Positions 4,872-49,559 of a DNA stretch of 51,558 bases are shown in pieces. The notes under the pieces are model-generated. The model was not told the origin of the DNA and searched no databases. It worked only from the letters and a program-made list of their open reading frames with translations. The stretch is taken from positions 1 to 51,558 of the forward strand of contig JAKFCT010000060.1 in the NCBI GenBank assembly GCA_036676495.1, in the 5' to 3' direction. The translations under genes were made by a program, and so were the position numbers. Position 1 is the first letter of the stretch, and every line of letters begins with the position of its first letter. The stretch is from Candidatus Sericytochromatia bacterium. Lineage in GTDB: Bacteria; Cyanobacteriota; Sericytochromatia; S15B-MN24; UBA4093.

Positions 4872-4899
4872 TTATCGCCGGAGCTCCGGGAGGGCTTGC
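4872..4899 (-). promoter_or_regulatory. Putative alternative-sigma promoter GCAAG-N15-GGCGATAA
   Basis: About 50 nt upstream of the flp ATG; same motif recurs at 28945, 47078 and 49532. Confidence 0.55.
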
Positions 4900-5233
4900 G
4901 CTGATCTGGTGAAGGAGGATTGAAGCTTTCCCTAAATCCAGATTAAGCTTGCTGAACTCACGCCAAGACGTGCGATTGACACGGGTTTGCAGGCAACGAG
5001 CGCCTCACCCGGACGGTTCAAAGCACCCCGAGATCACGGAACGGCTCGGTCACTCGCCAACCGAGCAAGCGGCCGTACGCAAGTGCACAGCCGCGCCGCG
5101 ATGGCCCATTCACTCGACCGTCTCGCGTTGTGGCATCCTGATACTCAATCACCCACCCCCCCCTCTCGAACCGAAGCCCGCCGGTCACACACCCGGCGGG
5201 CTTCCTTCATGCGCCCGAAGGCAGGCACGGACG

Positions 5234-5263
5234 CCGTCGGGTGTTTCCCCGTCGGATGTTTCC
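5234..5263. repeat. 15-bp tandem repeat x2 (CCGTCGGRTGTTTCC)
   Basis: 5234-5248 and 5249-5263, one mismatch. Confidence 0.8.
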
Positions 5264-5526
5264 GAAGCGAAGGGGTATCTTTAGGCTGCAACGGCGAGAG
5301 AAGGGCGGTCGAGTCCTCACGCGGACTCTCGACTAGCGTGCCGGGCCGCAACGAGTCGGGGAGGTCACGAGGGCCCGGGGATAGGCTTGATACCCGACGC
5401 TTTGGCCCGAAGAGACAGGGGCCCCGACCACCAGGCCTCCTCAGCAAGGCCCGGCTCCGCAGGCCCAGGCTAGAATCCAAGTTCCAGCCTGGGGAAGCGT
5501 TCGAGATCCGCGGAGGACCGTACCGA

Positions 5527-5585
5527 CCGGACCGAGCCCTTCCATTCCGGACCGAGCCCTTCCATTTGGGACCGAGCCGCTTCAT
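5527..5585. repeat. 20-bp tandem repeat x3 (CCGGACCGAGCCCTTCCATT)
   Basis: Two exact copies (5527-5546, 5547-5566) and a degenerate third (TGGGACCGAGCCGCTTCAT). Confidence 0.9.
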
Positions 5586-5615
5586 AAAAAAAGGCCCACC
5601 CTTGCGGGTGAGCCT
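5586..5615 (-). terminator. Intrinsic terminator of the DUF4015-like gene
   Basis: Minus strand AGGCTCACCC-GCAA-GGGTGGGCCT followed by a T run. Confidence 0.85.
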
Positions 5616-5643
5616 GAAGGATGAACGGAGCTAATGGAATGAG

Positions 5644-6828: not shown

Positions 6829-6928
6829 GAATGGGCTCCTCAAGAATGAAGAAAAGAGACGCCCCTTATATACCGCATCCACCGGCATGATGAAAGGGGC
6901 TCGGTCAAATGTTCATCTGGCCGAAACA

Positions 6929-6955
6929 AAGGGCCCCGACTGCGTCGGGGCCCTT
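6929..6955 (-). terminator. Intrinsic terminator of the helicase gene
   Basis: 12-bp stem AAGGGCCCCGAC/GTCGGGGCCCTT followed by T-rich bases on the minus strand. Confidence 0.8.
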
Positions 6956-6970
6956 CAGGATGATGAGGGA

Positions 6971-8659: not shown

Positions 8660-8796
8660 ATAACCAATCCTCTTCCGAAGTGGAGAGAGCCTAACGTGAC
8701 TCCAGAACTAAGTCACAGGCGGCCTGAAGCCGCGGGCAGCGAGTCACAAAACTGCCAATCAGCGGTGTCCCGGACGGGATGCACCGTTCCCCCATC

Positions 8797-12626: not shown

Positions 12627-12803
12627 ATGACACTGTCCCAGAACCTTCGCCGCATCTGGAACGAGGAAGAGGGAGCGGCCCTCGTCGAGTACGGCCTGAT
12701 CGTCGGCCTGATCGCCGCCGTCTGCATCGCGGGAGTGACCACCATGGGCACCAGCGTCAACACCATGCTGGAAACCATCGCGGGCAAGCTGCCCAAGGGA
12801 TAA
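12627..12803 (+). CDS. flp: Flp pilin (locus B, copy 1)
   Basis: NEEEGAALVEYGLIVGLIA; AAAGGAG RBS (alternative ATG at 12621). Confidence 0.95.
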   Translation: MTLSQNLRRIWNEEEGAALVEYGLIVGLIAAVCIAGVTTMGTSVNTMLETIAGKLPKG

Positions 12804-12918
12804 CCTCCCCGTCCCACGGCGGCTCCTCTCCCGCTTGGGAGGGGAACCCCCCTCAGATTCTGCCACCCAACTCCTGACGACTTAACTTCCCCCCATGCGC
12901 CATGAAAGGAGAACGACC

Positions 12919-13095
12919 ATGCAATTGACCCAGAACCTTCGCCGCATCTGGAACGAGGAAGAGGGAGCGGCCCTCGTCGAGTACGGCCTGATCGTCGGCC
13001 TGATCGCCGCCGTCTGCATCGCGGGAGTGACCACCATGGGCACCAGCATCAACGGCCTGTTGGGAACCCTCGCAGGCAAGCTGCCCAAGGGATAG
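12919..13095 (+). CDS. flp: Flp pilin (locus B, copy 2)
   Basis: NEEEGAALVEYGLIVGLIA; AAAGGAG RBS. Confidence 0.95.
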   Translation: MQLTQNLRRIWNEEEGAALVEYGLIVGLIAAVCIAGVTTMGTSINGLLGTLAGKLPKG

Positions 13096-13111
13096 ACTCC
13101 GCTCCCAGTCA

Positions 13112-13148
13112 GCGGCTGTTCCCCTCACTGCAGAAGGGGAACAGCCGC
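13112..13148 (+). other. Perfect 14-bp stem-loop between the flp genes and tadE, no U tract
   Basis: GCGGCTGTTCCCCT 13112-13125 / AGGGGAACAGCCGC 13135-13148. Confidence 0.75.
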
Positions 13149-13174
13149 CCCCTATTCAAAGGACGAGGTGACCG

Positions 13175-13555
13175 ATGCAGCGACGCCGAGACGAGGCCGG
13201 ACAGGCCCTGGTCGAGATGGCCCTGGTGATGCCCATGCTCATCGCGATGATCGTGGCCGTCATGACCTTCGGCCACCTCTTCATGTCCCAGCAGATCATC
13301 ACCAACGCCAGCCGTGAAGGAGCCCGGGCCGGCACCCTCGGCCAGGGCGAGACCGCCATCAAGCAAATCATCGAAGAGCAACTCACCGCCGCCCACCTCC
13401 AGGAGACACCGCAGATCATCGTACAAGGAGCGGGGGGGCCCAGTGGGAGCCAGGTCACGGTCACCGTGACGTATCCCCTGAAGCTGGTGACTCCCGTCCC
13501 GGGGTTGCCGAACCCCTTCCCGCTGAACTCCCAGACGATCATGAGGATTGAATGA
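13175..13555 (+). CDS. tadE: TadE-like pseudopilin
   Basis: AGQALVEMALVMP...ITNASREGARAG...VTVTVTYP. Confidence 0.9.
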   Translation: MQRRRDEAGQALVEMALVMPMLIAMIVAVMTFGHLFMSQQIITNASREGARAGTLGQGETAIKQIIEEQLTAAHLQETPQIIVQGAGGPSGSQVTVTVTYPLKLVTPVPGLPNPFPLNSQTIMRIE

Positions 13556-14358
13556 TGACGAGAGCCGGAAAACGGCTGCTGACGGCCCTGACGTTCGGGC
13601 TGCTCATCAGTGGCAGCCTCTACCTTTACGCAAACCAGCCGCGCGCCTCCGCGGAGGCCGCCCCGGGCGGCACGATGCTGGTCATCACGAGCCACGTGCC
13701 CGCCAACACCCCGCTCGAAGCGAAGCACTTCAAAGTAGAGAGCCGGCCGCTCGATTACATCACCCCGGGAGCCATCAGCTCGCCTGATGGGGCTCTCGGG
13801 CGTCAGGCCAAATGGGACCTGGTGCCGGGGGATCCGCTCACCGAAGAGAAGCTGCTGAATCCCGGAGAGGAAGCCCGGACGCTGCTGCCCATTCCTAGCG
13901 GCAAGCGCGCCGTGACGGTCAAGGTGGACGAGGTCGTCGGCGTCGCCGGCTTCGTTCAGCCCAACTCGATCGTCGACGTCATCGCGATCTGGGACGTGGG
14001 CGGAGCCCCGCATTCCAAGGTCATCCTCCAGCGGATTCACGTGCTCGCCGTCGCCCAGGAATCCAACCGAGCAGAGGACGCCAAGGCCCGGGTCACCTCG
14101 TCCGTCACCCTGGCCGTGACTCCCTCCGAGGCCGAAAAACTCATTCTCGGCACCGAACGCGGCAGCATCCGCCTGGCCATGCGCGCTCCCGAGGAGGTCC
14201 AGGAGATCACGACCTCGGGAACCACCCCCGCCGCCTTGACCGGCGCTCCCCCCAAACCCGCCCCCGTGAAAGCCGCCGCGAAAGCCGCCCCCAAACCTCG
14301 GCAGCCCGAGTCGGTCGTCATCATCCGAGGAGGGCGCTCGGACGCCGTTTCGCCCTGA
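13552..14358 (+). CDS. cpaB: Flp pilus assembly protein CpaB/RcpC
   Basis: TM helix, SAF-like region, IPSGKRAVTV.VDEVVGVAGFVQP..VDVI, VTLAVTP.EAEKL, G.IRLAMR. Confidence 0.93.
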   Translation: MMTRAGKRLLTALTFGLLISGSLYLYANQPRASAEAAPGGTMLVITSHVPANTPLEAKHFKVESRPLDYITPGAISSPDGALGRQAKWDLVPGDPLTEEKLLNPGEEARTLLPIPSGKRAVTVKVDEVVGVAGFVQPNSIVDVIAIWDVGGAPHSKVILQRIHVLAVAQESNRAEDAKARVTSSVTLAVTPSEAEKLILGTERGSIRLAMRAPEEVQEITTSGTTPAALTGAPPKPAPVKAAAKAAPKPRQPESVVIIRGGRSDAVSP

Positions 14359-14394
14359 GCCCGCGCTCTTCGCTTCACCGGAAAGGATGTCGCC

Positions 14395-15612
14395 ATGTTG
14401 AAGAAGATGACCGTGCTCAGCGCGAGCCTCACCATTGCCCTCATTGCCCTCCCCGCCCACGGCAAGAGCCTCAACGTGACCGTGGCCAAGTCCACGGTGC
14501 TCGACCTTCCCGAGCGCATCGTCAAGGTCTCCGTGGCCGACCCGGCCATCGCGGACGTTGCGGTCCCCACCAAGCAGAGCCTCCTCATCAACGGCAAGCG
14601 CTCGGGCATGACGTCGCTGATCGTCTGGACGGCCAAGTCCCGCTTTCAGTACGACCTGATCGTGAGCGGAGACCCTCCCCAGAGCCGACAGGGAGTCGAT
14701 GTCTCCCTCATCAAGACGGCCCTCCAGCGTACCCTGCGCCAGGCAAGCGATGGCGTCCACGTCGAGCTGATCGGAAACCGCGTGCTTCTGAGCGGCCATG
14801 TCCCCGACCCCGCGATGCTCGAGAAAGCCGGTAAGGTGGCCTCGGGGTTCGCCGAGAACGTGATCAACCTGGTCCAGGTCCAGAACGTCGCTCAGGTGGA
14901 GGTCGACGTCCAGGTCGTCGAGATACGCCGCGAGCAGGGCCATGATCTCGGTACTAAATGGGGTTCCCTGCGGATCGCCCCGAACGGCGAGGCCATCTTC
15001 ATGAAGGATCTCATGACCTTCGCCGAGGCCGCCCCCGGCCAGACGGTCACCTTTCGACAATTCGACCGCCTGGCGGCCCAGTTGCAGCTCATGGTGAGAG
15101 AAGGCCATGCGAAGGTCCTCGCCAAGCCCAAGCTGGTCGCGGCCAACGGGGGCAAGGCCAGCTTCCTGGTCGGTGGAGAGATTCCCATCCCCATCTCCCA
15201 GCAGCTCGGACAGGTCACCGTCACCTGGAAGGACTACGGCGTCAAGCTCAACGTGGCGCCCACCGCCCGCAACGATGGCCGGATCGCCCTGAAGGTCGCC
15301 CCCGAGGTCAGCGCGCTGGACTACACCAACGCCATCAAAATCAACGGCTTCCTCATCCCGGCCCTCACCACGCGCTCGGCCGAAACGGACGTGCTCCTCG
15401 CTCCTGGCGAGGGCCTCGCCATCGGAGGACTCATCCATAACACGGAAGTCCAGAACCTCGAAAAGCTTCCCCTCCTGGGAGATATCCCCATTCTCGGCAA
15501 CCTGTTCAAATCCACCCAGTTTCAGAAGCAAGAGACCGAACTGACCATTCTGGTCTCTCCTCGCTTGATCAGCCCGACAGCCGTGCAGCCCCAGCTGGGA
15601 GCGAAGCCATGA
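14395..15612 (+). CDS. cpaC: Tad secretin CpaC/RcpA
   Basis: Signal peptide, VSVADPAIADV, BON-like region, ASFLVGGEIPIP, LPLLGDIPILGNLFKS, TELTILVSPRL. Confidence 0.95.
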   Translation: MLKKMTVLSASLTIALIALPAHGKSLNVTVAKSTVLDLPERIVKVSVADPAIADVAVPTKQSLLINGKRSGMTSLIVWTAKSRFQYDLIVSGDPPQSRQGVDVSLIKTALQRTLRQASDGVHVELIGNRVLLSGHVPDPAMLEKAGKVASGFAENVINLVQVQNVAQVEVDVQVVEIRREQGHDLGTKWGSLRIAPNGEAIFMKDLMTFAEAAPGQTVTFRQFDRLAAQLQLMVREGHAKVLAKPKLVAANGGKASFLVGGEIPIPISQQLGQVTVTWKDYGVKLNVAPTARNDGRIALKVAPEVSALDYTNAIKINGFLIPALTTRSAETDVLLAPGEGLAIGGLIHNTEVQNLEKLPLLGDIPILGNLFKSTQFQKQETELTILVSPRLISPTAVQPQLGAKP

Positions 15613-16505
15613 AACCGCGCCACAACGAGAAGGGTGGGGCCCTCGTCCTGATCGCCGTCCTGACCACCGGCCTGCTGCTGATGACCGGGGTCGGGGCGGA
15701 CGTCGGAATGATGCTCTTCCGGCGGGGCCAGATGCAGGCAGCAACCGACGCCGCCGCTCTGGCCGGCGCCTTGCTGCTCGATCGCACCGATACGCTAGCG
15801 ATTGATGAGGCCAAGCTCTTCGCCGAAAAGAACGGCTACCCCCTCCAAGCCGGGGAAGCGACGGTCGTGACCTGGTCCCGCCTCAAGGTGAGCATCCAGC
15901 GGCCGGTCTCGCTCCTGCTGGCCCCCTTCCTCGAGTTGGCGGAAGTCGACGTGGGCGCGAGCTCGGTCGCCGAGTACGCGCTCGTCCACCGGGGAGTCCG
16001 CCCCCTGGGTATCCCCGATCAAGTCTTCGAGACCTACCGGGACTACGCCGTGAAGCTCGGAGCAGGCAGCAACGGCGGGGGTAACTTCCAGGCCCTGTCC
16101 TTGGACAACCGCGGATCGCCGACCTTCGAAGAACACTTCAAGTACGGAAGCGACGTGATGGTTTCCGTTCCCAGCATGGTCCCGACCGAGACCGGAAACA
16201 TGTCCGGACCGACGGATAACGCGGCCTCCTATCTCTTGAGCAAGGCGCCTGCGACTCCCAGCTACGAGAAGGTGCTCGAGATGGCGGCAGCGGATCCGGA
16301 TTCGATCACCGCTTACCCCCGGGTCATCACCGTCTGCATCGTCAAGGACTTCGCGATCAACGGCCGAAAGGAGGTCGAGGTGATCGGTTTCGCCCGGTTC
16401 TACCTGGATAGCAACAACAAGGGCGAGGTCCACGCCCGCTACATCGATCGGTTCAATAGCGTCCAGCAGCCCGGTACGAAGTACCGCGTTCGCCTGGTCG
16501 GATAG
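15609..16505 (+). CDS. tadG: Tad-domain (TadG-like) minor pilin
   Basis: KGGALVLIAV...DVG...MQAATDAAALAGA. Confidence 0.85.
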   Translation: MKPRHNEKGGALVLIAVLTTGLLLMTGVGADVGMMLFRRGQMQAATDAAALAGALLLDRTDTLAIDEAKLFAEKNGYPLQAGEATVVTWSRLKVSIQRPVSLLLAPFLELAEVDVGASSVAEYALVHRGVRPLGIPDQVFETYRDYAVKLGAGSNGGGNFQALSLDNRGSPTFEEHFKYGSDVMVSVPSMVPTETGNMSGPTDNAASYLLSKAPATPSYEKVLEMAAADPDSITAYPRVITVCIVKDFAINGRKEVEVIGFARFYLDSNNKGEVHARYIDRFNSVQQPGTKYRVRLVG

Positions 16506-16514
16506 GAGGGCGAC

Positions 16515-17711
16515 ATGGAAAGACCGCATGTCGCCATTCTCTCCCAGGGCGGCTTCGAACCCTCGCTCTCGCCGGCTCGGTACGTGACCAGCCCTCTCTC
16601 CGAGAGCCTCGAGGGACTCACGGAGAGGAACCCGGATCTGGTCCTCATCGACTTCCACGAGGCCGAGACGGCCGTGGCCCAGGCCGAGCGGATCCAGCTT
16701 GAGCTCCCGGCGGCCGTCATCCTGCTGAGCGGCCCTCCCATGGAGCCCGCGACGCTCATGCGCGCCATGCGTGCCGGCGTCCGGGAAGTGCTCTCGGACG
16801 CCGACCCGGCTGAACTCGAGCGCGCCCTCGATCGCGCCTGGGGGCACCGGCAACGGCTGCAGGAAAGCCGGAACGCTCCCCCTACCCGGCCGCTTGGAAA
16901 GGTGATCGTGATTCACTCGCCGAAGGGAGGCTCCGGGAAGTCCACCGGGGCGGCCAACCTCGCCTGCGCCTTGCGCAAGGTGAGCGGCGAGAGCGTCGTC
17001 TTACTCGATCTCTCCCTCCACGGAGGCGATCTCGACCTCCTGCTCAACGTCAAGGCCCACGCGACCTGGGCGGATCTCGCGCAGAGCGGTCCCTTCGGGA
17101 TCGAGGAGATCGATTCCGTCCTCATGCCATGCGGCAACGGCCTGAAGCTCCTGGCGGCCCCCGCCCTCTCGGTGGATGCCGAGCTGGTCGATTCCCGGGT
17201 CCTCGAGCGGGCCATCACTCCGCTACGCGAGCGCCATGCCTACGTGGTCATCGACACGTCCTCGGTCCTGAGCGAGGTGACCCTCAAGGCGATGGAGCTG
17301 GCCGACCGGATCGTGATGCCGCTGCCGATGACCCTCCCGGCCCTGCGCCTTGGCCAGAAGAGCCTGAAGCTCTGGCCCCAGCTGGGGATACCCGCCTCAC
17401 GCGTCGTCGTTGCGGCCTGGGACCAGAACGGCGATCTCGCGATCGGGGAGGCCGAGAAGATCCTCCAAGCCCCCATCGCCCTCCAGATCCCCCCCCTGGG
17501 CAAGGCCATCGAGCAGGCCATGAACGCCGGCGAGCCCCTCGTCCTGAGCCAGCCGAACGGAGCTTTCGCCAGGGCGATCATGGAGCTGGCCCAGAGGCTC
17601 AGCGATTCCCCCGCCCAGGAAAAGAACGAGGCGGGCCGGTTCCAGGGATGGTTGAAGCAGCTCTCGCAGCACGTCAGGAGGCAGAACGATGTTTCTACGC
17701 AACAAGCTTAA
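16515..17711 (+). CDS. cpaE: CpaE/TadZ (receiver-like domain plus MinD/ParA ATPase)
   Basis: AMRAGVREVL, deviant Walker A SPKGGSGKST, YVVIDT. Confidence 0.9.
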   Translation: MERPHVAILSQGGFEPSLSPARYVTSPLSESLEGLTERNPDLVLIDFHEAETAVAQAERIQLELPAAVILLSGPPMEPATLMRAMRAGVREVLSDADPAELERALDRAWGHRQRLQESRNAPPTRPLGKVIVIHSPKGGSGKSTGAANLACALRKVSGESVVLLDLSLHGGDLDLLLNVKAHATWADLAQSGPFGIEEIDSVLMPCGNGLKLLAAPALSVDAELVDSRVLERAITPLRERHAYVVIDTSSVLSEVTLKAMELADRIVMPLPMTLPALRLGQKSLKLWPQLGIPASRVVVAAWDQNGDLAIGEAEKILQAPIALQIPPLGKAIEQAMNAGEPLVLSQPNGAFARAIMELAQRLSDSPAQEKNEAGRFQGWLKQLSQHVRRQNDVSTQQA

Positions 17712-19994: not shown

Positions 19995-20073
19995 CCCATG
20001 CGCCGAGGGCCATGACCTCTAAGCCGCCAAGCGGGCGCAAGCCTTGCGCGAACGTACTCACGGAGGGAAGAAG

Positions 20074-27820: not shown

Positions 27821-27924
27821 GAGGGGCTCTTTCCGAAAGGGTTGACCGTCGAGCGAGATTTCCGCTATCCTGGCGACGTCAGGCTTTTCCAAGACCATTC
27901 TAACAAAGGACAGGAGACCTGGAA

Positions 27925-28150: not shown

Positions 28151-28432
28151 TTACAGCGTCGTCGGGTCTCCGTCTTGCTTCTTTGATTTGCGCCGGCGGT
28201 TGCGCATCAGGACCTCAAAGGGGTTTGTCGGGGGTTCCCCCTTGAAGCGAAGCCGATCCGAGCCGAGTGGGGCGGACGCCGGGGTCTGCGGGGTCTGGGG
28301 GGCAGCAGCCGATTGGCCGGCGCCGGCCCCGCCTCCAGCGCTTCCAAAGCGGGGATCCCGGCGGTTGATCTCCTGGAACAACCGCTGGTCCGCTGGATCC
28401 GGAAGCGAATTGGAAACCCCGTTGACCGACAT
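28151..28432 (-). CDS. Hypothetical low-complexity protein (93 aa)
   Basis: MSVNGVSNS...; 6 nt after the upstream gene; ends at the terminator. Confidence 0.65.
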   Translation of the reverse strand: MSVNGVSNSLPDPADQRLFQEINRRDPRFGSAGGGAGAGQSAAAPQTPQTPASAPLGSDRLRFKGEPPTNPFEVLMRNRRRKSKKQDGDPTTL

Positions 28433-28438
28433 GGCCGG

Positions 28439-28861
28439 TTACGCTCCGCGACGCATCTCGGAGACGGCGTTGGCGAGGTTGGCGAGTTCGACCTTCTGGG
28501 CGGGCGAGAGGGCAGCGCCCGAACGCTCGGCGACCAAGAGAACGAACTGCTCGGGCTTGCCGCCCGCTTCCTTCCAGAGGCCCTCGATCTCCGCGGGGGC
28601 AAGCTTCTTGACGGGCTTGGCCGCCGGGCGAACGCCCAGGTCGCCCATCAGACGATCCATGCCGGGCTCGACGCCGGCGCCGGCGGCAAGGCGGTTGGTG
28701 CCGCTGCCGATGAGGTTCACGTCACCCTGAGCGGCAGCCCGAGCCACCGGCTCCGCTCCCGTCCCGGCTTGAGCAGGCTGAACCGCCTCCCGGGCATTGG
28801 AGAGCATACGCTTGAAGATGTCCCCGATCCCACCGCCGTTAGGATTAATCGTGCCGCTCAT
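28439..28861 (-). CDS. Hypothetical protein (140 aa)
   Basis: AAGGGAG RBS before ATG 28861 (MSGTINPNGGG...). Confidence 0.7.
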   Translation of the reverse strand: MSGTINPNGGGIGDIFKRMLSNAREAVQPAQAGTGAEPVARAAAQGDVNLIGSGTNRLAAGAGVEPGMDRLMGDLGVRPAAKPVKKLAPAEIEGLWKEAGGKPEQFVLLVAERSGAALSPAQKVELANLANAVSEMRRGA

Positions 28862-28944
28862 GTGGATAGTCTCCCTTAATTCATCTTGCGCTTCAGTGGA
28901 TGACGACCGGTCACCCGGTGGGGAATCCTCCCCCGACACCCTCC

Positions 28945-28971
28945 TTATCGCCACTAGAAGTTTAACCTTGC
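28945..28971 (-). promoter_or_regulatory. Putative alternative-sigma promoter GCAAG-N14-GGCGATAA
   Basis: Resembles sigma-28 TAAAG-N14-GCCGATAA; about 85 nt upstream of ATG 28861. Confidence 0.55.
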
Positions 28972-29173
28972 TAGTTTAAAGTCCGTTTAAACGATAACTT
29001 TACAATCTTTTAAAATTCATCGGCGAAACCCGCGCCCGATCCGGCTCTCCCCCTCCGGATGCTCCGGGCGGGGTTAACCCGCAGGCGGCATTTGGTTAAC
29101 CCAGCCTTAATCTGACCCGGGCGAAAGCCGGGCCTCCTCCCCCGGGGGGCCTCCGGCCTTAACACCTGCTTAA
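28961..29173. promoter_or_regulatory. Cluster of TTAA-N7-TTAA boxes
   Basis: Exact boxes at 28976-28990, 29096-29110 and 29159-29173; GGTTAACCC twice (29072, 29094). Confidence 0.55.
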
Positions 29174-38500: not shown

Positions 38501-41497
38501 CCCGACGACAAGCTGCGCGTGCTGGCCGGCTACTGCGCCCGCCAGCTGGCCGAAGCCTCCCGGCTCAAGCGCGAGGTCGATCAGGCCTTCCTCTTCGCAG
38601 ATCTCTGGGCCGCCTACTCGGGCAAGACCCTCGACTGGTGGCGCTTCCGGGCCGAACTGGCCCGCGACGCGGGCCGCGCGTCGATGGCGATCGCCCTCTA
38701 CCGCGGCATCGTCCTCACCCATCCCGAGGCCCTCGAAGACGCCCTCTCGCTCACCCGCTGCTACCCGGATCCCCGCGAGGCGCGTCCCCTGCTCGAAGGG
38801 CTCCTCGCCGAGCGCCCGAACGCGGTTGCGGCCGCTCATGCGCTCGCCATGCTGGCCCTCGACGATTCGGACATGGAAGGGGCCATCGCCTGGTGGAACC
38901 ATGCCCTCCAGCATGCCCCCTCCAACGCGACGCTCTGGCGGCGCCTCGCCGACTGCTACCGCCGGAGCGGCCGGTACGCGGAAGCCTGCGCGGCGTACGC
39001 GCGCCTGGATGCGCTCGTCCCCGCCGACCCGATTCTGCTCAAGGCCTGGGGAAATGCCGCCCTCAGCGGCGAGCTCTGGGAAGAAGCCCGCACTCCTTTC
39101 GGACAACTGGCCGAAACCCACGGAGATCGCGCCGCCATGCTCACCCTCGCGGAGGTGGCGACGACCCTCCAGGATCATCCCGAGGCATGGCGCTGGAGCC
39201 AGGTCCTGCTCGCGGAGGAGGAGCCGCCCGCCGAAGCCGAGACCCTGGCCATGGGAGCCGCCAAGGCGCTCGCCGAAGGCGCGAGCGGACAGGAAGCCCT
39301 CGACTGGTGGGAGCGGTACCTGGATCTGGCTCCCGGAGACATCGACGCGCACCTGAGCCAGAGCCGGGTCCTCAAGGCCGAAGGGATGCTGGAAGAGGCG
39401 ATCGCCACGCTTCACCACACCCTGGACCTCGCGCCGGACGACAGCACGGCCCTGCGTCTCCTGGCCGATTGCTACCGCCAGTCGGGAGATCTCGCCGCGG
39501 CCGGGGACGTCCTCGAAACCGCCCTTCAAGCGGACCCCAAGGACCACGAATCGCTCTTCGCCCTGGCCGAGATGGCCTGGGATCGCGGCGAAATCCAGCG
39601 GGTCTGGGAGCTGGGCCAGCAACTGCTCGCCATCAACAACCGCAACCCCCAGGCCCAGGGACTCATCGCCCGCTGCGCGAAGCTGCTCGCCGAGGAAGCG
39701 TCCACCCAGGGAGACTGGGATAACGCGATCCTTTACTGGGAGCTGCTGCTCAGCTTCGACATCGACGAGGAGACCGCCCTCCAGAGCCTGAGCCAGGCCT
39801 ACGTCAACGCCGGCCGCTACGCCGAAGCCGTGGGCATCCAGCGCGAGGTGGTGCGCATCTTCCCCGAAGACCCCGACCGCCGCTTCCGGCTCGGAGAGAT
39901 CGCGGTCATGGGAGGCTTCTGGGACGAAGCACGGGCGACCTTCCTGGAGCTGCGCGAGGCCGATCCCAGCCACATCCCCACCCATCACGCCCTGGCGTCG
40001 GTGGCGCTCGCCCTGGACGACTTGGAAGCCGCCGAAGGCCATTTCCTCGATGCCCTGGCCCAGGACGCGCACGACCTGAAGGCGCGGATCGGGCTGGCCC
40101 GGCTCTACATGGCCCAACGCCCGAAGCAGGCCTGGGACGTGCTCAAACCGGCGACCACCGAGACCCCCGTCAAGGGAGAGATTGCCGCCCTCTCTTACCA
40201 GGCTCTGGATCGCCTCGCCGAAGAAGCTCTTTCCCAGGAGCGCTTCGCCGAAGCGGTCGACCTCCGGCGCGAAGCCGTGGCGCTCGACCCCAACACCGAG
40301 GATCCCGCAGCCCGGCTCTGGCGCCGCAAGCTCGCCGCCAGCTTGGTGAAAGCCGGCCGCAAACCCGAAGCCGTCCGCGAGCTCGCGTCCCTTCTGGAAA
40401 GCGATCCCGGAGACGTCGAGGCCTCCTACTTGCTCGGCAGCATCCACCGCCAGAGCTCGGATCTGGAGAGCGCTTGCCGGGTCTTCGAGCGAATCCTCGA
40501 CCTGCAGCCTGGTCACGTGGAAGCCCGGATCGCCCTGGCAGAGATCGACTGGGAGATTTCGGACCTCGACGGGGCCTGGACCCACGTCCAGGAAGCCTTG
40601 CAGGCCCAGCCGACCCACGAAGCCGGACGGAGCCTGTTCAGGAAGCTGGCCCTGGCCTTCGCGGACCGCGCGCAGCAAGACGGCGAGCTCTCCGAGGCGG
40701 TGCAATGGTGGAACCATGTCTGGCGCCAGGACCAGCGGGACCTCGAAACCCTCCGCAAGATGGCCCGCGCCCACATCGCCCTGGGCCAGCTCTCGGCGGC
40801 CGCCGACTGCTACGCCTTCGCGCTGGATCTCGACCCCAAGGATCTCGAAACCGCCCATATCCTGGCGGATATCCACCGCCAGCGCGGCGACCTCAAGGCC
40901 GCCGAAAAGCCGCTCTTGCGGATCGTCGCCCTGGACCCTCGCCACGCCCCGAGCCTGCGGGCTCTCTTGAAGCTGGCGCGCGATCGCGACAACGCCCCCG
41001 AAGCCCTCAAGCGCGCCTACGACCTCCTCGACGTGGAGCCCGACGATCCCGAATCCCTCTTCATCATGGCCTGGGCGCACCAGCAAATGCTGGAACGGCG
41101 CGCCGCACTGGAAGCTTGCAAGGAGTTGATCACCATCGATCCCCAGCATGCGGAAGGACACCACCTCATGGGCCAGATCGCACGCGACCTGGGCGACTAC
41201 GATCTCGCCAAAAAGGTCCTCACGACCGCCCTCTACCTCCGCCCGTGCGCCGCCTACTACCACACCATGGGCACCATCTACTCCGCCATGGGCTACACTG
41301 ACGAATCCCTCGCCTCCTTCAACCAGTCACTGGGCATGGATCCCGACTACGCCGAAGCGCACGCCGATCTCGGGTTGGGCCTCGTCCGCATGCGCCAGGT
41401 CGAGAAGGCCAAACCCCACCTCCAGAAGGCATTCAACCTGATCCCGAAGGACACCGAGCGCTCGCTCGCCCTCCAGTGCGCCCTGGACCTGCTCTGA
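32507..41497 (+). CDS. Giant tetratricopeptide-repeat protein (2996 aa)
   Basis: Uninterrupted 9-kb ORF of TPR-like units (ARLNLGAVLSELGDFDGAIAQYR...; AEAHADLGLGLVRMRQVEKAKPHLQKA); no signal peptide or catalytic domain recognised. Confidence 0.93.
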   Translation: MHPKALTLQNAGLAHQKQGEFPQAREAYLQALALDARLDTARLNLGAVLSELGDFDGAIAQYRTLLDTHPDHPKAMFGLVRALAGARRLEDAQQTLDRLAELGADDLPVPKLQAWLAAQRAPKPDAGQPDAGQPNARPPAASLPTAPEPAPPELPAPASPLPQDVQGLLAQGQALLGEELAGEAIAPLREAVRRDPDDVRAHLLLAEALTQAGDGEGAWQAYAEVTFRQPDAPGLRERLIALCRQQARAADAAHALRWWERLQGLQPSDLEAARALEQSYTSQSRVMDLIRLLQSQAERTSDPAVILRLGQALGAINRTTEALALYQQALSERPEALAIRRAAATLALLDQQPGLARQLLSEAENLPPDVELLLARANFEEGRTEEGWGVLNPLLDLPEVAERAQALGIEFVRPFALRLSGELRDPRGAATWWRRLLSCRPGDEQALDALEGLYQELDRPQDLAEILALRPPSMLDSGQIQRLIAAWLAAGRPDSAHAALSDLATRAGDPNFARLELAKLSLTMGLATRAWRELEPLLKPPTPETTVLAGEISHQIALKLQESGDYAKALGWWKLHLHYQPKSPELKRVADAQLAAGDLAGAMQTLRECLRRHPEDEETMLTLAGFELAEGRFAEARVLFEAILKRNPDHLRAVQGMAEVSAGMGNDDASLTWSQRLLEITHDEIPELIQAARQAIDRSDDEDAWETLRKVLDKDATHAEALDLARTCLKRMAASYYGEIALAWWKELLAIDPQNLEALRELARGAVEAGRRDEATRRYQELVAVDPADPDAALWLGRGHLDAGRYEEARQSLSRSKEARERLDGVLIQAELALIDGDTQVARSLFGRAVGMSRGNIQAMAGLAKVTLAEGKAGDAWVMFKRLLQTPEAPKVRDDALACLRRLIQASPGAAALTWWEEVLALEPRSLEALRAIATLHHDAGTLDSALAFAHRALGLAPDDRDARRLTAEILRDRGQPEAAAQTLESLLASGSLEALQALARIDRSKATQALEDWLAKDPSRKDLRRLRVQWAMEAGKHQDAWPHLEILLSQDSDPTLVDVARSCLEILATGSQDAAEGASWWEKLLERDPGHGQALAAIANYCRATGQIDRANALTLRLIANGNSSPEAAMSLGTSLELQNQLDDARKAYAQAAQAQHPEAFLALGRLSMQAGQVAQAQALLERAAKLAPGRQTEIPFAQACLANGAALKAWDVLKHWLDKDDPPTRMARTALDQLLAAASEAEAIPLWHERLKLDARDPEAHAALFRHARATGDVAGQERHAPMVLESAPQDADAALVQGLARHRNGEDAEALLRIAADAGRAEAYLPLALTFWKKKDASSARLWLERHLQHAPAGSDALRLQLELARHEGQVEEEWRVLEQLETLPREATPPGTPRPESPFIQAKHALARKQLQGLRPQHAEPWVERALALGERDALEALASSWLSAAPPEGHGPGDDASKGHGPQAARELYARLIDLAPERPSAHQGLGNALLLLGDRRGALAALQTAYQHGERGPAIVSKLMELTWEAQNHEQAGSWAQRLLELVPDHPLALKTRLEAARELARRAAAPEEQQKWWQAVLKLAPEDPEALRMAAAIARALGDPATTARLLSQLHRVQPRDLSVLLSLADACLETGNRKGARRALELAQALDPEDLGLRARLAALLIEEGDAPAAEAALAEILSRDPENQDALKVLAGLKLDASPEEALTLLEQALKLGEDATIRELAVECAEQLARSQEGPAALDAWKRLLGIDPGHVGALRAIADDRLAAGRPDEALTPLFTLVKHDPAPETLFELARTLQACRRPHEATAFYLTLANQYDYLPAWQALAETSLASGDLDAAHDAANRLLREQAPGAVDLVLRAARGLARRAEAAGDSEAAHRFWSEALEHAPTDLDALEGLAQAAENLGRLEESVALLRRLEPLDPSPRSSVKLAEILIKQGSDEEAEKLFSRALASDPEEPHAHAALARLAQGRGDFLIAGDHAQRALRRMPDDKLRVLAGYCARQLAEASRLKREVDQAFLFADLWAAYSGKTLDWWRFRAELARDAGRASMAIALYRGIVLTHPEALEDALSLTRCYPDPREARPLLEGLLAERPNAVAAAHALAMLALDDSDMEGAIAWWNHALQHAPSNATLWRRLADCYRRSGRYAEACAAYARLDALVPADPILLKAWGNAALSGELWEEARTPFGQLAETHGDRAAMLTLAEVATTLQDHPEAWRWSQVLLAEEEPPAEAETLAMGAAKALAEGASGQEALDWWERYLDLAPGDIDAHLSQSRVLKAEGMLEEAIATLHHTLDLAPDDSTALRLLADCYRQSGDLAAAGDVLETALQADPKDHESLFALAEMAWDRGEIQRVWELGQQLLAINNRNPQAQGLIARCAKLLAEEASTQGDWDNAILYWELLLSFDIDEETALQSLSQAYVNAGRYAEAVGIQREVVRIFPEDPDRRFRLGEIAVMGGFWDEARATFLELREADPSHIPTHHALASVALALDDLEAAEGHFLDALAQDAHDLKARIGLARLYMAQRPKQAWDVLKPATTETPVKGEIAALSYQALDRLAEEALSQERFAEAVDLRREAVALDPNTEDPAARLWRRKLAASLVKAGRKPEAVRELASLLESDPGDVEASYLLGSIHRQSSDLESACRVFERILDLQPGHVEARIALAEIDWEISDLDGAWTHVQEALQAQPTHEAGRSLFRKLALAFADRAQQDGELSEAVQWWNHVWRQDQRDLETLRKMARAHIALGQLSAAADCYAFALDLDPKDLETAHILADIHRQRGDLKAAEKPLLRIVALDPRHAPSLRALLKLARDRDNAPEALKRAYDLLDVEPDDPESLFIMAWAHQQMLERRAALEACKELITIDPQHAEGHHLMGQIARDLGDYDLAKKVLTTALYLRPCAAYYHTMGTIYSAMGYTDESLASFNQSLGMDPDYAEAHADLGLGLVRMRQVEKAKPHLQKAFNLIPKDTERSLALQCALDLL

Positions 41498-43336: not shown

Positions 43337-43378
43337 CGCCTGCAGCTAAACCGTCAGGCCACTCCCGCCTTCCCGTCG

Positions 43379-43411: not shown

Positions 43412-43530
43412 CTCCGCGCCTCCCGCCCGCTAAAACTTCGGCAAATCTTGATTAAACGGCACCAAGCCCGCCCGTTTCGGGGCACATTGTATAAGGACTC
43501 TCCCTATTTGCTTCGGAAAGGAGCCGCCGC

Positions 43531-45402: not shown

Positions 45403-45430
45403 CGCCTACGACGTTCGAGCCAAGCAAATC

Positions 45431-45465
45431 GACGAAGGCCCCTCTCGGCGAGAGGGGCCTTCGTC
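45431..45465. terminator. Hairpin between convergent genes
   Basis: GACGAAGGCCCCTCTC-GGC-GAGAGGGGCCTTCGTC perfect inverted repeat. Confidence 0.8.
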
Positions 45466-45530
45466 TTGAAGTCTTGAATGACGGTTTCGAGGCGGAGAAA
45501 GAACGAGGGGCGCCCGTGGGCGCCCCGTCG

Positions 45531-46559
45531 CTACCGGATGAGGTTGAGGAGCTGATCCTGGGAGTTGTTGTACTCCTGGAGCATGGTCGAGAGGTTCTTG
45601 AAGACAAAGTCCGCCGTCTGGTTCTCGAGAATCGAGAGCTGCAGCGCCACCTGGGCGTCCACCTGCTCGATGCGGTTCCCGAAGACCGTGAACTCGCCCT
45701 TGGAGTTCAGGTCGGAATTGACTTCCCGGTAGAAGTCCGTCACCGTCCGGACGGTCGATCCGGCCAGGGTGCTCAGCGAGAAGTTGTAAGTGGTGGGCCC
45801 GAAAGACGAGATGTTGAGTTCCGACTGGTTAGGCACCCGGACGATGGCGAGCTGGCTCGTCAGGCCATCGTACTGGAGGGCTTCCTTCCCGTCGGTACCG
45901 GTCGCGTAGGTGGCAATTCCCTTGATGACCTTTCCGCGCGGGTCGCTGGAGCCGACGGCTCCGTCGCGACTGCCCAGCATGCCCGGGGGGCCCGTCTCTT
46001 CGGGGCGCAATTCCCCGTTGGGTCCCATGGTCCCTTTCGGAGGCAGGCGGCGGATCTTCATGAAGTCCTTGCTGCTCGGGTCCGTCTCGATGTCGCCGGC
46101 CCTCAGGACGAAGAGGCCCTGGTTATTGACGAGTTGGTAGACGGGATTCTTGGCCTCGTCGACGCCGGTTTGCTTCCAGGTGAAGGTGCCATCGCGGGTC
46201 AGCATGACCCGGGCGCCGGGATTCAGGCTCTCGGCGACGGCAAAGAAGCCGTTGCCCTGGATGCCCAGGTTCGAGAGGGCTCCGTCAGCGCCCTTGAGGG
46301 GATCCTGGCGGTGTTGCAGGGCGGTCCGCTGGATGGTCAGCTCGCCGGCCGTCAGGCCCATGGGGGAACGTCCGCCGAGGCTCGACGTTCCGGCCGATCC
46401 GGGATCGATCTCGAACGAGGACTGCTGCATGCCCAGGTGGGTCTTGCGCTGCTTGAAGCCCGGCAAGAGGCCGCCCTGGGCGTTCAACAGGATGTTGTTG
46501 CGCCAGGCGTCCACCGTCCGGAAGGTATTGATGAAGTTGTAGCGTAAATCGAATCCCAT
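45531..46559 (-). CDS. Divergent flagellar rod/hook (FlgE/F/G family) protein
   Basis: PGFK, NLGIQGNGFFAV, LTRDGTF, LVNNQGLFVL, LAIVRVPN, C-terminal helix ending QLLNLIR; GGAGG RBS. Confidence 0.8.
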   Translation of the reverse strand: MGFDLRYNFINTFRTVDAWRNNILLNAQGGLLPGFKQRKTHLGMQQSSFEIDPGSAGTSSLGGRSPMGLTAGELTIQRTALQHRQDPLKGADGALSNLGIQGNGFFAVAESLNPGARVMLTRDGTFTWKQTGVDEAKNPVYQLVNNQGLFVLRAGDIETDPSSKDFMKIRRLPPKGTMGPNGELRPEETGPPGMLGSRDGAVGSSDPRGKVIKGIATYATGTDGKEALQYDGLTSQLAIVRVPNQSELNISSFGPTTYNFSLSTLAGSTVRTVTDFYREVNSDLNSKGEFTVFGNRIEQVDAQVALQLSILENQTADFVFKNLSTMLQEYNNSQDQLLNLIR

Positions 46560-46709
46560 CGCGACCTCCGATCAGCCTCACCTTGGGATCCTACCCAACG
46601 CTCGCCTGTTCTAATCCAGGCAGGGCCGGACCCCGCTGGCTTCCGGCATCCAGGAGATAGCGCCCGCGGCTCAACCACCGCGATCGCGGCTAAATCGACG
46701 CGATGGGGG

Positions 46710-46997
46710 CTAGACCTTCGCCATCGCGGCGTACTTCTCCTGGATCATCTTCATGATGTCGCGGATGGTGTCCGGCAGGCTCTGGATGGCCTTGAGCTCG
46801 GTTTCGTAGCGCTTCTTGGCGGAAGGGTTGACGGCGTGCCAGATGCCGCGGCCCAGGCTCTTGACGCCCAGGAAGCCGGAATCCGACATATCGGCGGCGC
46901 GCTGCTGGGCATCGGCGATGGCGCCAGCGGCCGTGTGCGTGGTCCGGACGATGTCCATCCCGCGGTAATTCGAGCCTCCTGCTCCAGAAACTCCCAT
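46710..46997 (-). CDS. Small helical hypothetical protein (95 aa)
   Basis: AAGGAGG RBS before ATG 46997 (MGVSGAGGSNY...); GC3-rich codons. Confidence 0.8.
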   Translation of the reverse strand: MGVSGAGGSNYRGMDIVRTTHTAAGAIADAQQRAADMSDSGFLGVKSLGRGIWHAVNPSAKKRYETELKAIQSLPDTIRDIMKMIQEKYAAMAKV

Positions 46998-47077
46998 GGC
47001 AACCTCCTTCATCCGACCCTGGCCCCCGAGGGGGTGCGGTCCTGATTCCGCGGGCGCTTGCCCGTCTGCTAGGTGTT

Positions 47078-47105
47078 TTATGCCCGCGATCGCCCGGGAT
47101 CTTGC
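47078..47105 (-). promoter_or_regulatory. Putative promoter GCAAG-N15-GGGCATAA
   Basis: About 80 nt upstream of ATG 46997; both boxes identical to the 49532 site. Confidence 0.55.
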
Positions 47106-47188
47106 CCGGGTTCATCGCTTTCCAATCAAGTTTTAATGGAGTCCAAACAGTCGCAAACCCCCACGGCCGTGAAGCCGCTCGCCGGGCG

Positions 47189-49459
47189 CTAGGGACCCAC
47201 GATTCCCCGGCTGGTCGGCAGGTAGACCTTGGCGTTGTCCCGGTCGATGAAGGGCGGAGCGTTCACCATGAGGCCGGTCTGGGCCAGCGGCACCGATCCC
47301 ACCAGGACGTTGGGGACGCGCTCCCAGGCATTCCCATCCTTGATGGGAACCCTCACGATCTCGCGGGTGGCTCCGTTCAAGGTCGTCGACGAGTAGAGAT
47401 AATGCCCGTCGGTCGAGAGGATCTCACCGACTTTCGCCCCCTCGAACTGGTTGCTCACGATGGGCTTCCAGCCCTTCGCGGTGACACGGCAGAGGCGGGT
47501 ATCCGTCCCTCCCAGGTTGAGCCACGCAAAGGCGTAGCCGTTCACCGCGAAGGGATGCAGGAAGTACGGCTTGATCGCCTGAGTCTTGCCATCGGGAAGG
47601 ACCAGCAGATCCGCGTAATCCTTCCACAACTGCTCGCTCAACGAGGCGTACTTGACCCGGTTGCTGCCGACGGCGAGCAAATTCCGCCCCTCGCTGACGT
47701 AGACGGGATAGAAGTTCGCCTGGCCCGGCGCCGCTTGCGTCCAGTCACTCGTGACGTCGAGCGGACGATAGAACACCGCCTCCTGGCTCAGGAGCGACGT
47801 GGCCACGAAGAGGCGCCCCTTGCTGAAGAAGACCTTGTCTGCCTTGGGCTTGGCGCTACTCGGCAAGCTTTTCTGGATCAGGCTCCAGCTTCCCCCCTGG
47901 AAGAGATAGAAATCGACCGTGTCGCCGTACGCAACGGTCGCCGCATGGCCGTAGAGCGAGGAGAAGAGCATGGCTCGGCGGCCGGGATTTCCCAGTTCGA
48001 AGGGAACCCATTTCCCCCCCTGGTACGTGTAGGTCCCGAAGGCCGTCTGCACGTACGTCTGCGTGCCGATGCGGACGACCTTATCCACCGAGGCGCGGTT
48101 CAACTCGACGGACTCTTGCAGCCAACCCACCGTCCCCTGGGCATACGCGGCCGGCCCCCGAGTCAGAGGCGACAGGCTCTCGAGGATCAAGGGATAGCCG
48201 AAAAGCCCCTCGTTTCCCGCCAGGTAGATGCGAGAGCCATCCGTCGCGAAGCTGTTCCTGCCCTCCAGGGTGACCGACAGGACGTTTCCATCCACCTTCT
48301 TGGCGGTAACGGCCTCCCACTTGGAGTAGATGTTCACATCGCGCCGGTGGAAGACCTCAGGTCCTCGAGACGGGAGCGAACGGTAGGCGTAAAAGCGCCC
48401 TAGCTGCTTGACCAAGCCCTTGAAGTTGTCCTGGTAGGCTCCCGTGTACGGATCGTCCAGCGCATAACGCATCAGCGCCGAAGAATGCCCATCTCCGTAG
48501 AGCAGGTGATTCGTCGCGTTGAGCCCCCAGAAACGGTAGCCCCCGGAGATTCCCGGATTCTGGTAACTCCGGATCACCTTCGTGGGAAAATTGGCCGGCT
48601 GGAAGGAAAGTCCCGCGTAATTGTTCTCGGCATTCAAGTAGGCGTAGCCATTCCCCCCATCGGGCGTCCCTTCGGGCAGGAACTTCACCATGTACGGGGC
48701 GGAGGTGTTCGTCGTCTTGAGCAGCACGATCAGGTCCTTGCTCGTGCTTTCCGCATCCACGGAAAGATCAACGAAGCGCTCGCCGATATTCGAATCGCGG
48801 CGCAGGTCGACGATGGGCCCGACCCAACTCGAGCCATCCCAGCGGTAGAGGAAATCCTCGGTGGCCGCGAAGGCGAAGCCGGGCCCGCCGGCCACCGCGA
48901 CGATTCCGCGGGGAAGGGTGCTCTGCTGCCAGTCGCTGCTGCCTTCCTTCGCCTGATAGACCCGCTCCTCGCGATCATCCGCCGAAATGACCGTCTCGTT
49001 CGAGTCGTTCACGAAGAAGAGCCAGTTCCCGTCGCTGAAGAGGCGCGTGGGATACTTGCCGCGATGCGAGGGCAGCGTCTGTTGATCCGACCAGGGCGGC
49101 GGCGTGGCGTTCTTGGTGACGACCCGGTAGTAGAAGCGTTCGCCTTGCTCGAGGAAGAACTTGTACCCGCCGTCCGGCTGGAGGGCCCCGTGGATCTGCT
49201 TGATCTTCTGGTCCCGGGGAGACTCGCCCTCCCTCAGGCTCCAACTCAGGCCCTGGATCGCGTCGAGCACGGGTTCTTCCGGCTGATCCGGAGGCTCGAA
49301 CTCAATGGCCGGCGAGGGTTCGGAGGCGGCCGGGGTCGCTCCCGAGCCGGAGGGGTCCTTGTCCTTGTCCTTCGAGGTGGAGAGCGGATTGCCCGTGCAC
49401 GCCATGAGGGACAGAGCCAATATGCTGGCGACGAATCCGCTGATTTGCCTGCTGTTCAT
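47189..49459 (-). CDS. Large hypothetical lipoprotein (756 aa), probably beta-propeller rich
   Basis: MNSRQISGFVASILALSLMAC lipobox, Pro/Ser linker, aromatic beta repeats (LYRWDGSSW, YTYQGGKW, YLFQGGSW). Confidence 0.8.
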   Translation of the reverse strand: MNSRQISGFVASILALSLMACTGNPLSTSKDKDKDPSGSGATPAASEPSPAIEFEPPDQPEEPVLDAIQGLSWSLREGESPRDQKIKQIHGALQPDGGYKFFLEQGERFYYRVVTKNATPPPWSDQQTLPSHRGKYPTRLFSDGNWLFFVNDSNETVISADDREERVYQAKEGSSDWQQSTLPRGIVAVAGGPGFAFAATEDFLYRWDGSSWVGPIVDLRRDSNIGERFVDLSVDAESTSKDLIVLLKTTNTSAPYMVKFLPEGTPDGGNGYAYLNAENNYAGLSFQPANFPTKVIRSYQNPGISGGYRFWGLNATNHLLYGDGHSSALMRYALDDPYTGAYQDNFKGLVKQLGRFYAYRSLPSRGPEVFHRRDVNIYSKWEAVTAKKVDGNVLSVTLEGRNSFATDGSRIYLAGNEGLFGYPLILESLSPLTRGPAAYAQGTVGWLQESVELNRASVDKVVRIGTQTYVQTAFGTYTYQGGKWVPFELGNPGRRAMLFSSLYGHAATVAYGDTVDFYLFQGGSWSLIQKSLPSSAKPKADKVFFSKGRLFVATSLLSQEAVFYRPLDVTSDWTQAAPGQANFYPVYVSEGRNLLAVGSNRVKYASLSEQLWKDYADLLVLPDGKTQAIKPYFLHPFAVNGYAFAWLNLGGTDTRLCRVTAKGWKPIVSNQFEGAKVGEILSTDGHYLYSSTTLNGATREIVRVPIKDGNAWERVPNVLVGSVPLAQTGLMVNAPPFIDRDNAKVYLPTSRGIVGP

Positions 49460-49531
49460 CCTGTCCTCCCCTTGCGCGCTACCTGCATTATGTCCCAACC
49501 GAGCAGGCTTCTAACGCGCGCCGCCAAACGA

Positions 49532-49559
49532 GCAAGATATCCTCCTCATGCGGGCATAA
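49532..49559 (+). promoter_or_regulatory. Putative promoter GCAAG-N15-GGGCATAA
   Basis: About 42 nt upstream of ATG 49602. Confidence 0.55.

Follow-up and report, generated by a model that had tools for sequence, protein, structure and literature searches.

A predicted sigma-28-like promoter class upstream of Flp pilin, cell-wall and orphan genes in an uncultured Sericytochromatia bacterium

Four short intergenic sequences in a 51,558-nt stretch of DNA from Candidatus Sericytochromatia bacterium (contig JAKFCT010000060.1 of assembly GCA_036676495.1; the whole stretch is referred to below as the window) are very probably promoters of one alternative-sigma class, with a spacing and a −10 core that match those of sigma-28 promoters. 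The class, here called class A, has the general form G[C/A]AAG-N16/17-[C/G][G/C]ATAA and is predicted to serve about 65–100 transcription units in the genome. The existence of the motif, its dependence on spacing and orientation, its conservation and its list of targets were established by computation, and sequence comparison shows the class to be conserved across the order of this uncultured bacterium.

The genome (G000) spans 4.14 Mb in 106 contigs, with 66% G+C, and the window is its contig C60. An earlier note on this DNA, made from the sequence alone, had described four sense-oriented, intergenic copies of a promoter-like pattern, GCAAG-N14/15-GG(CG/GC)ATAA, and all four are exact: this strict pattern matches the window at 4872–4899(−), 28945–28971(−), 47078–47105(−), and 49532–49559(+) and nowhere else, with no match in 100 dinucleotide-preserving shuffles of the window. 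As read from the sequence, each site lies between genes and is oriented toward the next gene, which has a Shine–Dalgarno sequence and an ATG start codon (Table 1). When intergenic regions of the window were scored with a position weight matrix (PWM) trained on the genome, the matches of at least 19 bits were exactly these four sites. Four such matches in 51.6 kb fall in the upper tail of the distribution (Poisson P = 0.009), but this density is not unique, as contigs C1 and C101 hold stretches with five matches. Two weaker candidates proposed in the same note, upstream of an MshEN gene and of a lipoprotein gene, each scored below 9 bits and do not belong to the class; judged by eye, they look like housekeeping promoters of the TTGACA/TAnnnT type.

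For the genome-wide analysis, genes were called with our own codon-bias open reading frame picker, which is cruder than a standard caller; its 3792 genes occupy 87.5% of the genome, and the intergenic share is 12.6%. The strict pattern has only six matches in the 4.14 Mb, four of them in the window. This rarity indicates that the GG is not a general requirement of the motif, and in the PWM it is a weak preference only. A locus-specific element, considered on the basis of the six strict matches, was dropped once a relaxed motif appeared. Plain dyad counting, sense minus antisense, was swamped by GC-rich noise; the motif was uncovered by relaxing the pattern to GCAA-N17-19-SSATA in gene-facing upstream regions. 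It reads aaG[C/A]AAGtTT-N9/10-nnn[C/G]GATAAc, with a −35-like and a −10-like block at sigma-28 spacing. The iterated PWM found 100 gene-facing matches at ≥16 bits and 56 at ≥20 bits, and the sites lie mostly 30–80 nt 5′ of start codons.

Several comparisons define the specificity of this motif. The pattern G[CA]AAG-N16/17-SSATAA has 40 matches genome-wide, of which 29 are intergenic and gene-facing, two are otherwise intergenic and nine are in coding sequence. Changing the spacer to N12/13, N20/21 or N24/25, or permuting the −10 block, left three to eight matches in total; a control with GAA[CA]G in place of the −35 block gave 15 matches and was discounted because it overlaps the motif through GAAAG. 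Around the 110 gene-facing CGATAA sites, GCAAG occurs 14 times compared with 1.6 expected, 13 times at a spacer of 16 or 17. Conversely, the 705 gene-facing GCAAG sites are followed by ATAA at offset 19 in 23 cases, compared with a mean of 2.4, and GATA, TAAC and CGAT peak at the corresponding offsets. Anchoring on TAAA[GC] or TCAAG in the same gene-facing regions gave no comparable ATAA peak. The housekeeping promoter of this genome, cTTGACA-N17-TAnnnT, in which TTGAC pairs with TAnnnT, is distinct from class A. The proposal that the four sites share a non-random promoter-like motif is borne out, since the motif is specific in orientation and spacing, conserved in relatives and separate from the housekeeping type. 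Two more −35 words, TAAGAAT and TTTACC (six sites each), stand at a fixed distance from CGATAA in the gene-facing upstream regions of G000 and may mark promoter classes of other group-3 sigmas.

That RNA polymerase binds class-A sites we infer from their form. It is very improbable that the motif is instead a transcription-factor binding site or a dispersed repeat: its two short blocks are separated by a constant distance but an unconstrained sequence, gene-facing intergenic matches far exceed other intergenic ones (29 and 2), the sites lie mostly 30–80 nt before start codons, the copies share no extended flanking similarity, and the sequence is sigma-28-like. Factors may nonetheless bind near some sites too, as the AT-rich blocks just 5′ of the second window site are also conserved (see below).

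Conservation was analyzed in 41 genomes, namely G000 and 40 relatives from seven families (f1–f7) of one class, which are not independent samples. In most of families f1–f5, each genome has 6–30 copies of the exact form GMAAG-N16/17-CGATAA, compared with 0–5 for a reversed-pattern control, and genomes of genus g7 have 3–7; G026 shows no excess (14 versus 11 in the control). Enrichment is weaker in f6 (14–25 versus 2–11) and absent in f7, where motif and control counts are 3/13, 19/13, and 5/11. With N20/21 spacing, the count drops to 0–4 for the majority of genomes in f1, f3 and f4. The −35 word varies among groups, being GCAAG in f1, GAAAG in f3 and ACAAG in genus g7. With one Flp locus taken per genome, the motif lies no more than 350 nt upstream at 12 of 30 loci in relatives (in f1, f3, f4, f5, and one f7 genome); two further permissive-pattern matches at Flp loci were judged spurious and are excluded from this count. 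Cross-reading the lists of exact matches and Flp genes revealed four additional Flp genes about 100 nt downstream of a match.

The four window sites differ in how far they are retained. The site upstream of the Flp pilin genes (promoter 1) has an orthologous counterpart in G002. The gene for the 140-aa protein downstream of promoter 2 was found in five genomes, all from genera g1 and g2, with 53% protein identity between the genera; its promoter is present in all five, with CTAGCAAGrTTAAA and CGATA invariant and the intervening 9–10 nt diverged. Just 5′ of this promoter, at 28975–29035(−), the AT-rich blocks TTTTAAAA, TGTAAATTT, GTTTAAAC, and CTTAAAC are conserved in all five genomes and could form an UP element or an activator site. 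Promoter 3, before the gene for a 95-aa protein, is retained in three of three genomes of the genus only; a permissive pattern found no counterpart within 700 nt upstream of the orthologues of the neighboring 342-aa gene in other genera. Similarly, promoter 4, before the gene for a von Willebrand factor type D (VWD) domain protein, is retained in G001 and G002 with an altered spacer, that is, in three of three genomes of the genus, and no site of at least 13 bits was found at VWD loci in other genera.

To describe the predicted targets, we removed the window genes from the 64 best PWM matches, which left 61, and scanned the first 60 of these against NCBIfam. Among them are three subtilisin-like (mycosin-like) proteases, three LysM proteins, a fusion of an M23 peptidase with a lytic transglycosylase, two YiiX-like permuted papain enzymes, two major facilitator superfamily transporters, GH1 and GH13 enzymes, phospholipase-D-type enzymes, a porin matching the NCBIfam iron uptake porin model (NF033921), and a fatty-acyl-AMP ligase. 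No family was assigned to 28 of the 60, and none of the 60 is a flagellar gene. The earlier note had seen in the motif a regulon of pilins and small orphans. The link between Flp pilins and orphan genes holds, both here and in relatives, but the predicted regulon is far larger and is dominated not by pili but by peptidoglycan and other hydrolases, proteases, transporters and orphans. Its further idea of a single surface program is only weakly indicated: hydrophobic N-termini were predicted for 39 of 100 targets compared with a background of 27% (22 of the 60 scanned, P = 0.06), and neither hydrophobic N-termini nor signal peptides were found in the orphan targets of the window. Enrichment before pil and che genes, which the note had proposed to look for, was not seen. 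Among 17 chemoreceptor genes, 14 have no permissive-pattern match and three have weak ones only, so that none carries a convincing site, and flagellar genes carry a separate promoter variant.

G000 encodes flagellin, rod, hook-associated, and FlhA proteins together with a FliA above the curated cut-off. Its flagellar promoters follow cCTAAAG/cCTCAAG-N16-CGAw and never contain GCAAG. The flagellin promoter reads CTAAAG-N16-CGAATA, that of the gene after flagellin CTAAAG...GCCGATG, that of a rod gene CTAAAC...TCCGATAA, that of flgM (PF04316) CTCAAG...GCCGATAG, and that of a gene in the C38 cluster, on the contig encoding FliA, CTAAAC...GTCGATGA. Of the 28 flagellin loci inspected in relatives, about 11 have a recognizable promoter of sigma-28 type, and the other 17 gave no pattern match; all of the recognized promoters start with T (CTAAAG, CTCAAG, TCAAG, etc.) and continue with GCCGA(a/t), and none starts with G. 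In the class-A PWM, the first −35 position scores +1.6 bits for G and −4.2 for T, and the three bases before CGATAA score only 0.3–0.5 bits. Judged by these sequences, class A is different from canonical FliA promoters in a key −35 position (G versus T) and in having no GC before CGA.

G000 encodes two RpoD-like, three extracytoplasmic function (ECF) and five group-3 sigma factors, in line with the group-3 sigma proposed in the earlier note. FliA proper (C38:21532–22365) scores 268 bits with TIGR02479 (cut-off 189.6) and is accompanied by FlgM (PF04316, 48.5 bits). A second FliA-like sigma (C45:53739–54410; 223 aa) has regions 2 and 4 only, is FliA/WhiG-like by sequence and is 79–85% identical across the order. 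The remaining three are SigB/F-like paralogs, SigF-a (C30:20894–21712), SigF-b (C88; 66–67% identical to SigF-a) and SigF-c (C102), the last of which directly follows pilB (with an MshEN domain), pilT, and pilC (C102:6132–11330) and has no detected ortholog in genus g7. Their best models are PRK07408 SigF and TIGR02980, with all three below the curated cut-offs; SigF-a reaches 190.8 of 261 bits for SigF and 199.6 of 234.35 bits for SigBFG. Their nearest solved relatives, 8x6g_H and 1l0o_C (titled "sigma factor"), score above the sigma-28 FliA structure 1rp3_A. A search for sigma partners was unproductive, as no anti-sigma gene lies beside SigF-a or SigF-b; the neighbors encode an ABC permease, a glycosyl transferase family 3 protein (PF00591) and MnmE.

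Which of these sigmas reads class A we infer from the regions upstream of their genes. Phylogenetic profiles of the five sigmas did not discriminate when compared with motif counts, because almost every genome has every sigma. In upstream scans with the PWM trained on G000 only, the SigF-a gene has a match of at least 20 bits just upstream in 11 of 20 genomes and in two of 11 further ones, that is, in 13 of 31 relatives, and matches of 11–17 bits occur in six others (G012, G013, G027, G014, G024, and G037). No upstream class-A match was found for SigF-b (0/20 genomes) or SigF-c (0/20). The presence of the motif before SigF-a genes but not before those of its paralogs makes SigF-a autoregulation the favored reading, and we tentatively suggest that SigF-a is the reader and acts with positive autoregulation; on the sequence evidence this falls just short of an even chance. 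The earlier note had attributed co-regulation to a group-3 sigma. The shared alternative-sigma promoter class is supported by computation, and the choice of sigma is a matter of weighing several candidates.

A number of points weigh against SigF-a and the wider interpretation built on it. In G000, no class-A motif precedes the sigma genes on C30, C88, or C102, SigF-a has none in the entire genus, and the motif upstream of SigF-a is weak in family f4. By sequence SigF-a appears to belong to the SigB/F/G family, in which the known −10 elements are GGGTAT-like and unlike CGATAA, and CGATAA is a hallmark of FliA-type sigmas. A motif before a sigma gene can also mean a cascade rather than autoregulation. 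At least some enrichment is seen across the 38 genomes with an above-cut-off FliA and none in the two FliA-less genomes of genus g18, although this pairing is a single evolutionary contrast and involves AT-rich genomes. The motif itself served as the seed of the PWM, whose opposite-strand control gave 48 matches at ≥16 bits and 29 at ≥20 bits, on a strand that includes the promoters of divergent neighbors. Finally, FliA of Bdellovibrio activates a TAD/flp1 promoter in a reporter assay (PMC5430801).

A less likely alternative is one in which FliA proper (C38) reads both the TAAAG/TCAAG and the GCAAG versions, its regulon having expanded to Tad pili and envelope enzymes. The CTCAAG of the flgM promoter is one base from GCAAG, 38 of the 41 genomes encode a FliA above the cut-off, the two g18 genomes that lack one show no enrichment, and the predicted targets include LysM, M23, SLT, and YiiX-like wall enzymes; the SigD regulon of Bacillus likewise includes autolysins. 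The geometry is the same as in the sigma-28 consensus quoted in PMC2532724, TAAA-N15-GCCGAWAA, and the CGATAA core is shared. However, the −35 words do not cross over between the two versions. Four flagellar promoters of G000 and the roughly 11 flagellin promoters of relatives start with T, whereas the promoters of Flp genes (11 GCAAG and one CCAAG in relatives) and those of the 140-aa (five), VWD (three), and 95-aa (three) genes never do. The PWM of class A also lacks GC before CGA, and no convincing site precedes any of the 17 chemoreceptor genes. Furthermore, G036 has class-A-like promoters in a genome with neither an above-cut-off FliA nor flagellin: GCAAG-N16-CGATAT precedes an Flp gene, and AAGAAAGTT...CTATAA precedes its SigF-a/b-like gene.

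It is rather improbable that the FliA-like sigma on C45 reads class A and couples completion of a second basal body to the expression of late substrates, among them the rod/hook-like 342-aa protein and the small orphans. Its FliA/WhiG-like sequence, a composition of regions 2 and 4 alone that could suit the missing GC of the "extended −10", its high identity order-wide and the lack of signal peptides in the window's orphan targets would fit such a role. The scans found a class-A match of at least 15 bits in only one of 20 genomes, with about 7 kb upstream searched; the majority of class-A targets are non-flagellar, and the g18 genomes retain this sigma and FlgI yet show no motif enrichment. 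The sigma is apparently absent from G018 and G007, and both of these genomes have FlgI at a contig end. The C45 gene lies in a second basal-body cluster (C45:47985–60059) with FliK-like, FlgF, FlgG, FlgA, FlgH, FlgI, rod-binding protein, the FliA-like sigma, FlgB, FlgC, FliE, FliF, and FlhA genes, and the sigma and the adjoining FlgI are kept in f7 genomes without a detected flagellin or above-cut-off FliA. A comparably low probability attaches to another sigma, or a redundant one, being the reader.

A possible mechanism, which we put forward with some reserve, is that SigF-a, a SigB/F-like sigma, acquired a sigma-28-like specificity, giving rise to two parallel regulons of the same geometry, of which its own is positively autoregulated and order-wide. 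SigF-a, as a SigB/SigF-like group-3 sigma, would switch on Flp pilins, cell-wall enzymes and many orphans, and would activate its own gene in the manner of the cyanobacterial pilin regulator SigF. FliA would read cCT[A/C]AAG...GCCGA before flagellar genes, and SigF-a would read G[C/A]AAG...CGATAA before orphan genes and those for Flp pili, wall hydrolases and secreted proteases. A single −35 base, together with the extended −10, would be the main feature keeping the regulons apart.

The genes next to the four sites and the other features of the window are listed in Table 1. The window has two separate Tad/Flp loci. Locus A, which follows promoter 1, contains two Flp pilin genes (4637–4819 and 4406–4588), a prepilin peptidase gene (3694–4218) and genes for three TadE/TadG-like proteins. 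Locus B (12627–20994) contains two flp genes and genes for TadE, RcpC/CpaB, a secretin, a TadZ-like protein, TadA, TadB, and TadC; no class-A motif was found upstream of its flp genes (12627–13092), and locus A alone of the two carries one. The 140-aa and 93-aa orphans downstream of promoter 2 have neither a Pfam family nor a hydrophobic N-terminus. The 95-aa orphan downstream of promoter 3 was considered as an FlgM and rejected, as it has no Pfam match. The 342-aa protein encoded after it is present in 27 of 41 genomes and matches the Pfam flagellar rod/hook D1 family LlgE_F_G_D1 with 25 bits, under the cut-off of 27 bits; no relative was found in the PDB by sequence, and its assignment as a rod or hook protein was rejected on these two counts. 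By eye, its N-terminus is similar to that of flagellar axial proteins. The protein lacks a signal peptide and is encoded outside any flagellar cluster. The VWD protein has relatives or paralogs in 24 of 41 genomes. Between its gene and the divergent 756-aa gene, a block of about 35 nt (49465–49515) is near-invariant in the three genomes of the genus and more conserved than the adjoining class-A site; it looks like the −10 element and leader of the 756-aa gene. Elsewhere in the window are genes for a 2996-aa protein made up almost entirely of TPR repeats (32507–41497(+)) and for a 1235-aa protein that joins an MshEN domain to NHL repeats (24191–27898(−)).

Table 1. Predicted class-A promoters, the genes downstream of them and two weak candidates in the window. 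Promoter distances are counted between the last base of ATAA and the start codon.
Feature	Position	Strand	Details
Class-A promoter 1	4869..4901	−	GCGCAAGCCCT-N10-CGGCGATAACCC; 52 nt 5′ of flp; PWM 24.5 bits
Class-A promoter 2	28942..28973	−	TAGCAAGGTTA-N9-TGGCGATAAGGA; 83 nt 5′ of 140-aa gene; PWM 20.5 bits
Class-A promoter 3	47075..47107	−	GGGCAAGATCC-N10-CGGGCATAAAAC; 80 nt 5′ of 95-aa gene; PWM 19.7 bits
Class-A promoter 4	49530..49562	+	GAGCAAGATAT-N10-CGGGCATAATAG; 42 nt 5′ of VWD gene; PWM 19.0 bits
Tad/Flp locus A, downstream of promoter 1	1081..4819	−	Pfam Flp_Fap, Peptidase_A24, TadE, Tad
Orphan pair	28151..28861	−	140 aa (28439–28861) and 93 aa (28151–28432)
95-aa orphan and 342-aa protein	45531..46997	−	46710–46997 and 45531–46559
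VWD protein, 444 aa	49602..50936	+	Pfam VWD 24.2 bits; proline-rich N-terminus
Weak candidate, not a class member	43462..43487	+	5′ of 623-aa gene; PWM <9 bits
Weak candidate, not a class member	49488..49515	−	5′ of 756-aa gene; PWM <9 bits; block strongly conserved in genus

Our literature search found no report on promoters or sigma regulons of this lineage (Melainabacteria, Sericytochromatia, Vampirovibrionia). Class A offers an easily scanned regulon prediction of about 65–100 units that ties orphan genes to Flp pili and wall remodeling. It also provides a clean test case for the separation of promoters between closely related sigmas and supplies candidate promoters for heterologous assays. 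If SigF-a is indeed the reader, the theme of SigF controlling pilins and secretion would extend to non-photosynthetic relatives of the cyanobacteria, with a pilus type and a promoter sequence that differ from the cyanobacterial case.

Among known systems, class A is closest in sequence to the promoters of sigma-28 (FliA/SigD/WhiG), and the likeness drawn in the earlier note stands: the spacing, [TAAAG or GCAAG]TTT-N11/12-nnCGATAA, the CGATAA core and the T-rich tail after the −35 block are the same, and G000 encodes FliA, FlgM, and flagellar genes. The differences are that the −35 block of class A starts with G[C/A] rather than TA or TC, that GC is not conserved before CGA, and that class A was not found before flagellin, flgM, rod, or chemoreceptor genes. 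The FliA regulon of Bdellovibrio provides a precedent for a sigma-28-type promoter 5′ of Flp/Tad genes, there the TAD/flp1-flp2 operon, with both flagellin and flp promoters activated by FliA in reporter assays (PMC5430801). Both regulons are much expanded and include only part of the flp genes. Here, however, flp promoters are consistently set apart from flagellin promoters by the −35 block, and class A is also found before the gene of a SigB/F-like sigma.

The cyanobacterial SigF system may resemble class A in its regulator and outputs, and it differs in its promoter. SigF of Synechocystis autoregulates and drives pilA1 (PMC2532724), SigF1 of Synechococcus elongatus controls pilin and affects secretion (PMC11345509), and the effects on secreted and envelope proteins are broad (PMC2532724, PMC11345509). 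The best candidate reader of class A is a SigB/F-like sigma, Flp pilins are among the predicted targets, and there is a signature of possible autoregulation, consisting of motif presence alone in 13 of 31 relatives. The −10 likeness to cyanobacterial SigF assumed in the earlier note does not hold. The Synechocystis SigF promoter combines TAGGC (−32) with GGTAA (−12) and is called unlike sigma-28 promoters by its authors (PMC2532724), compared with the GCAAG and CGATAA blocks of class A. The pilin in that system is the type IVa PilA, as described there, and an Flp pilin here, and SigF-a itself stays under the curated thresholds for SigF and SigBFG.

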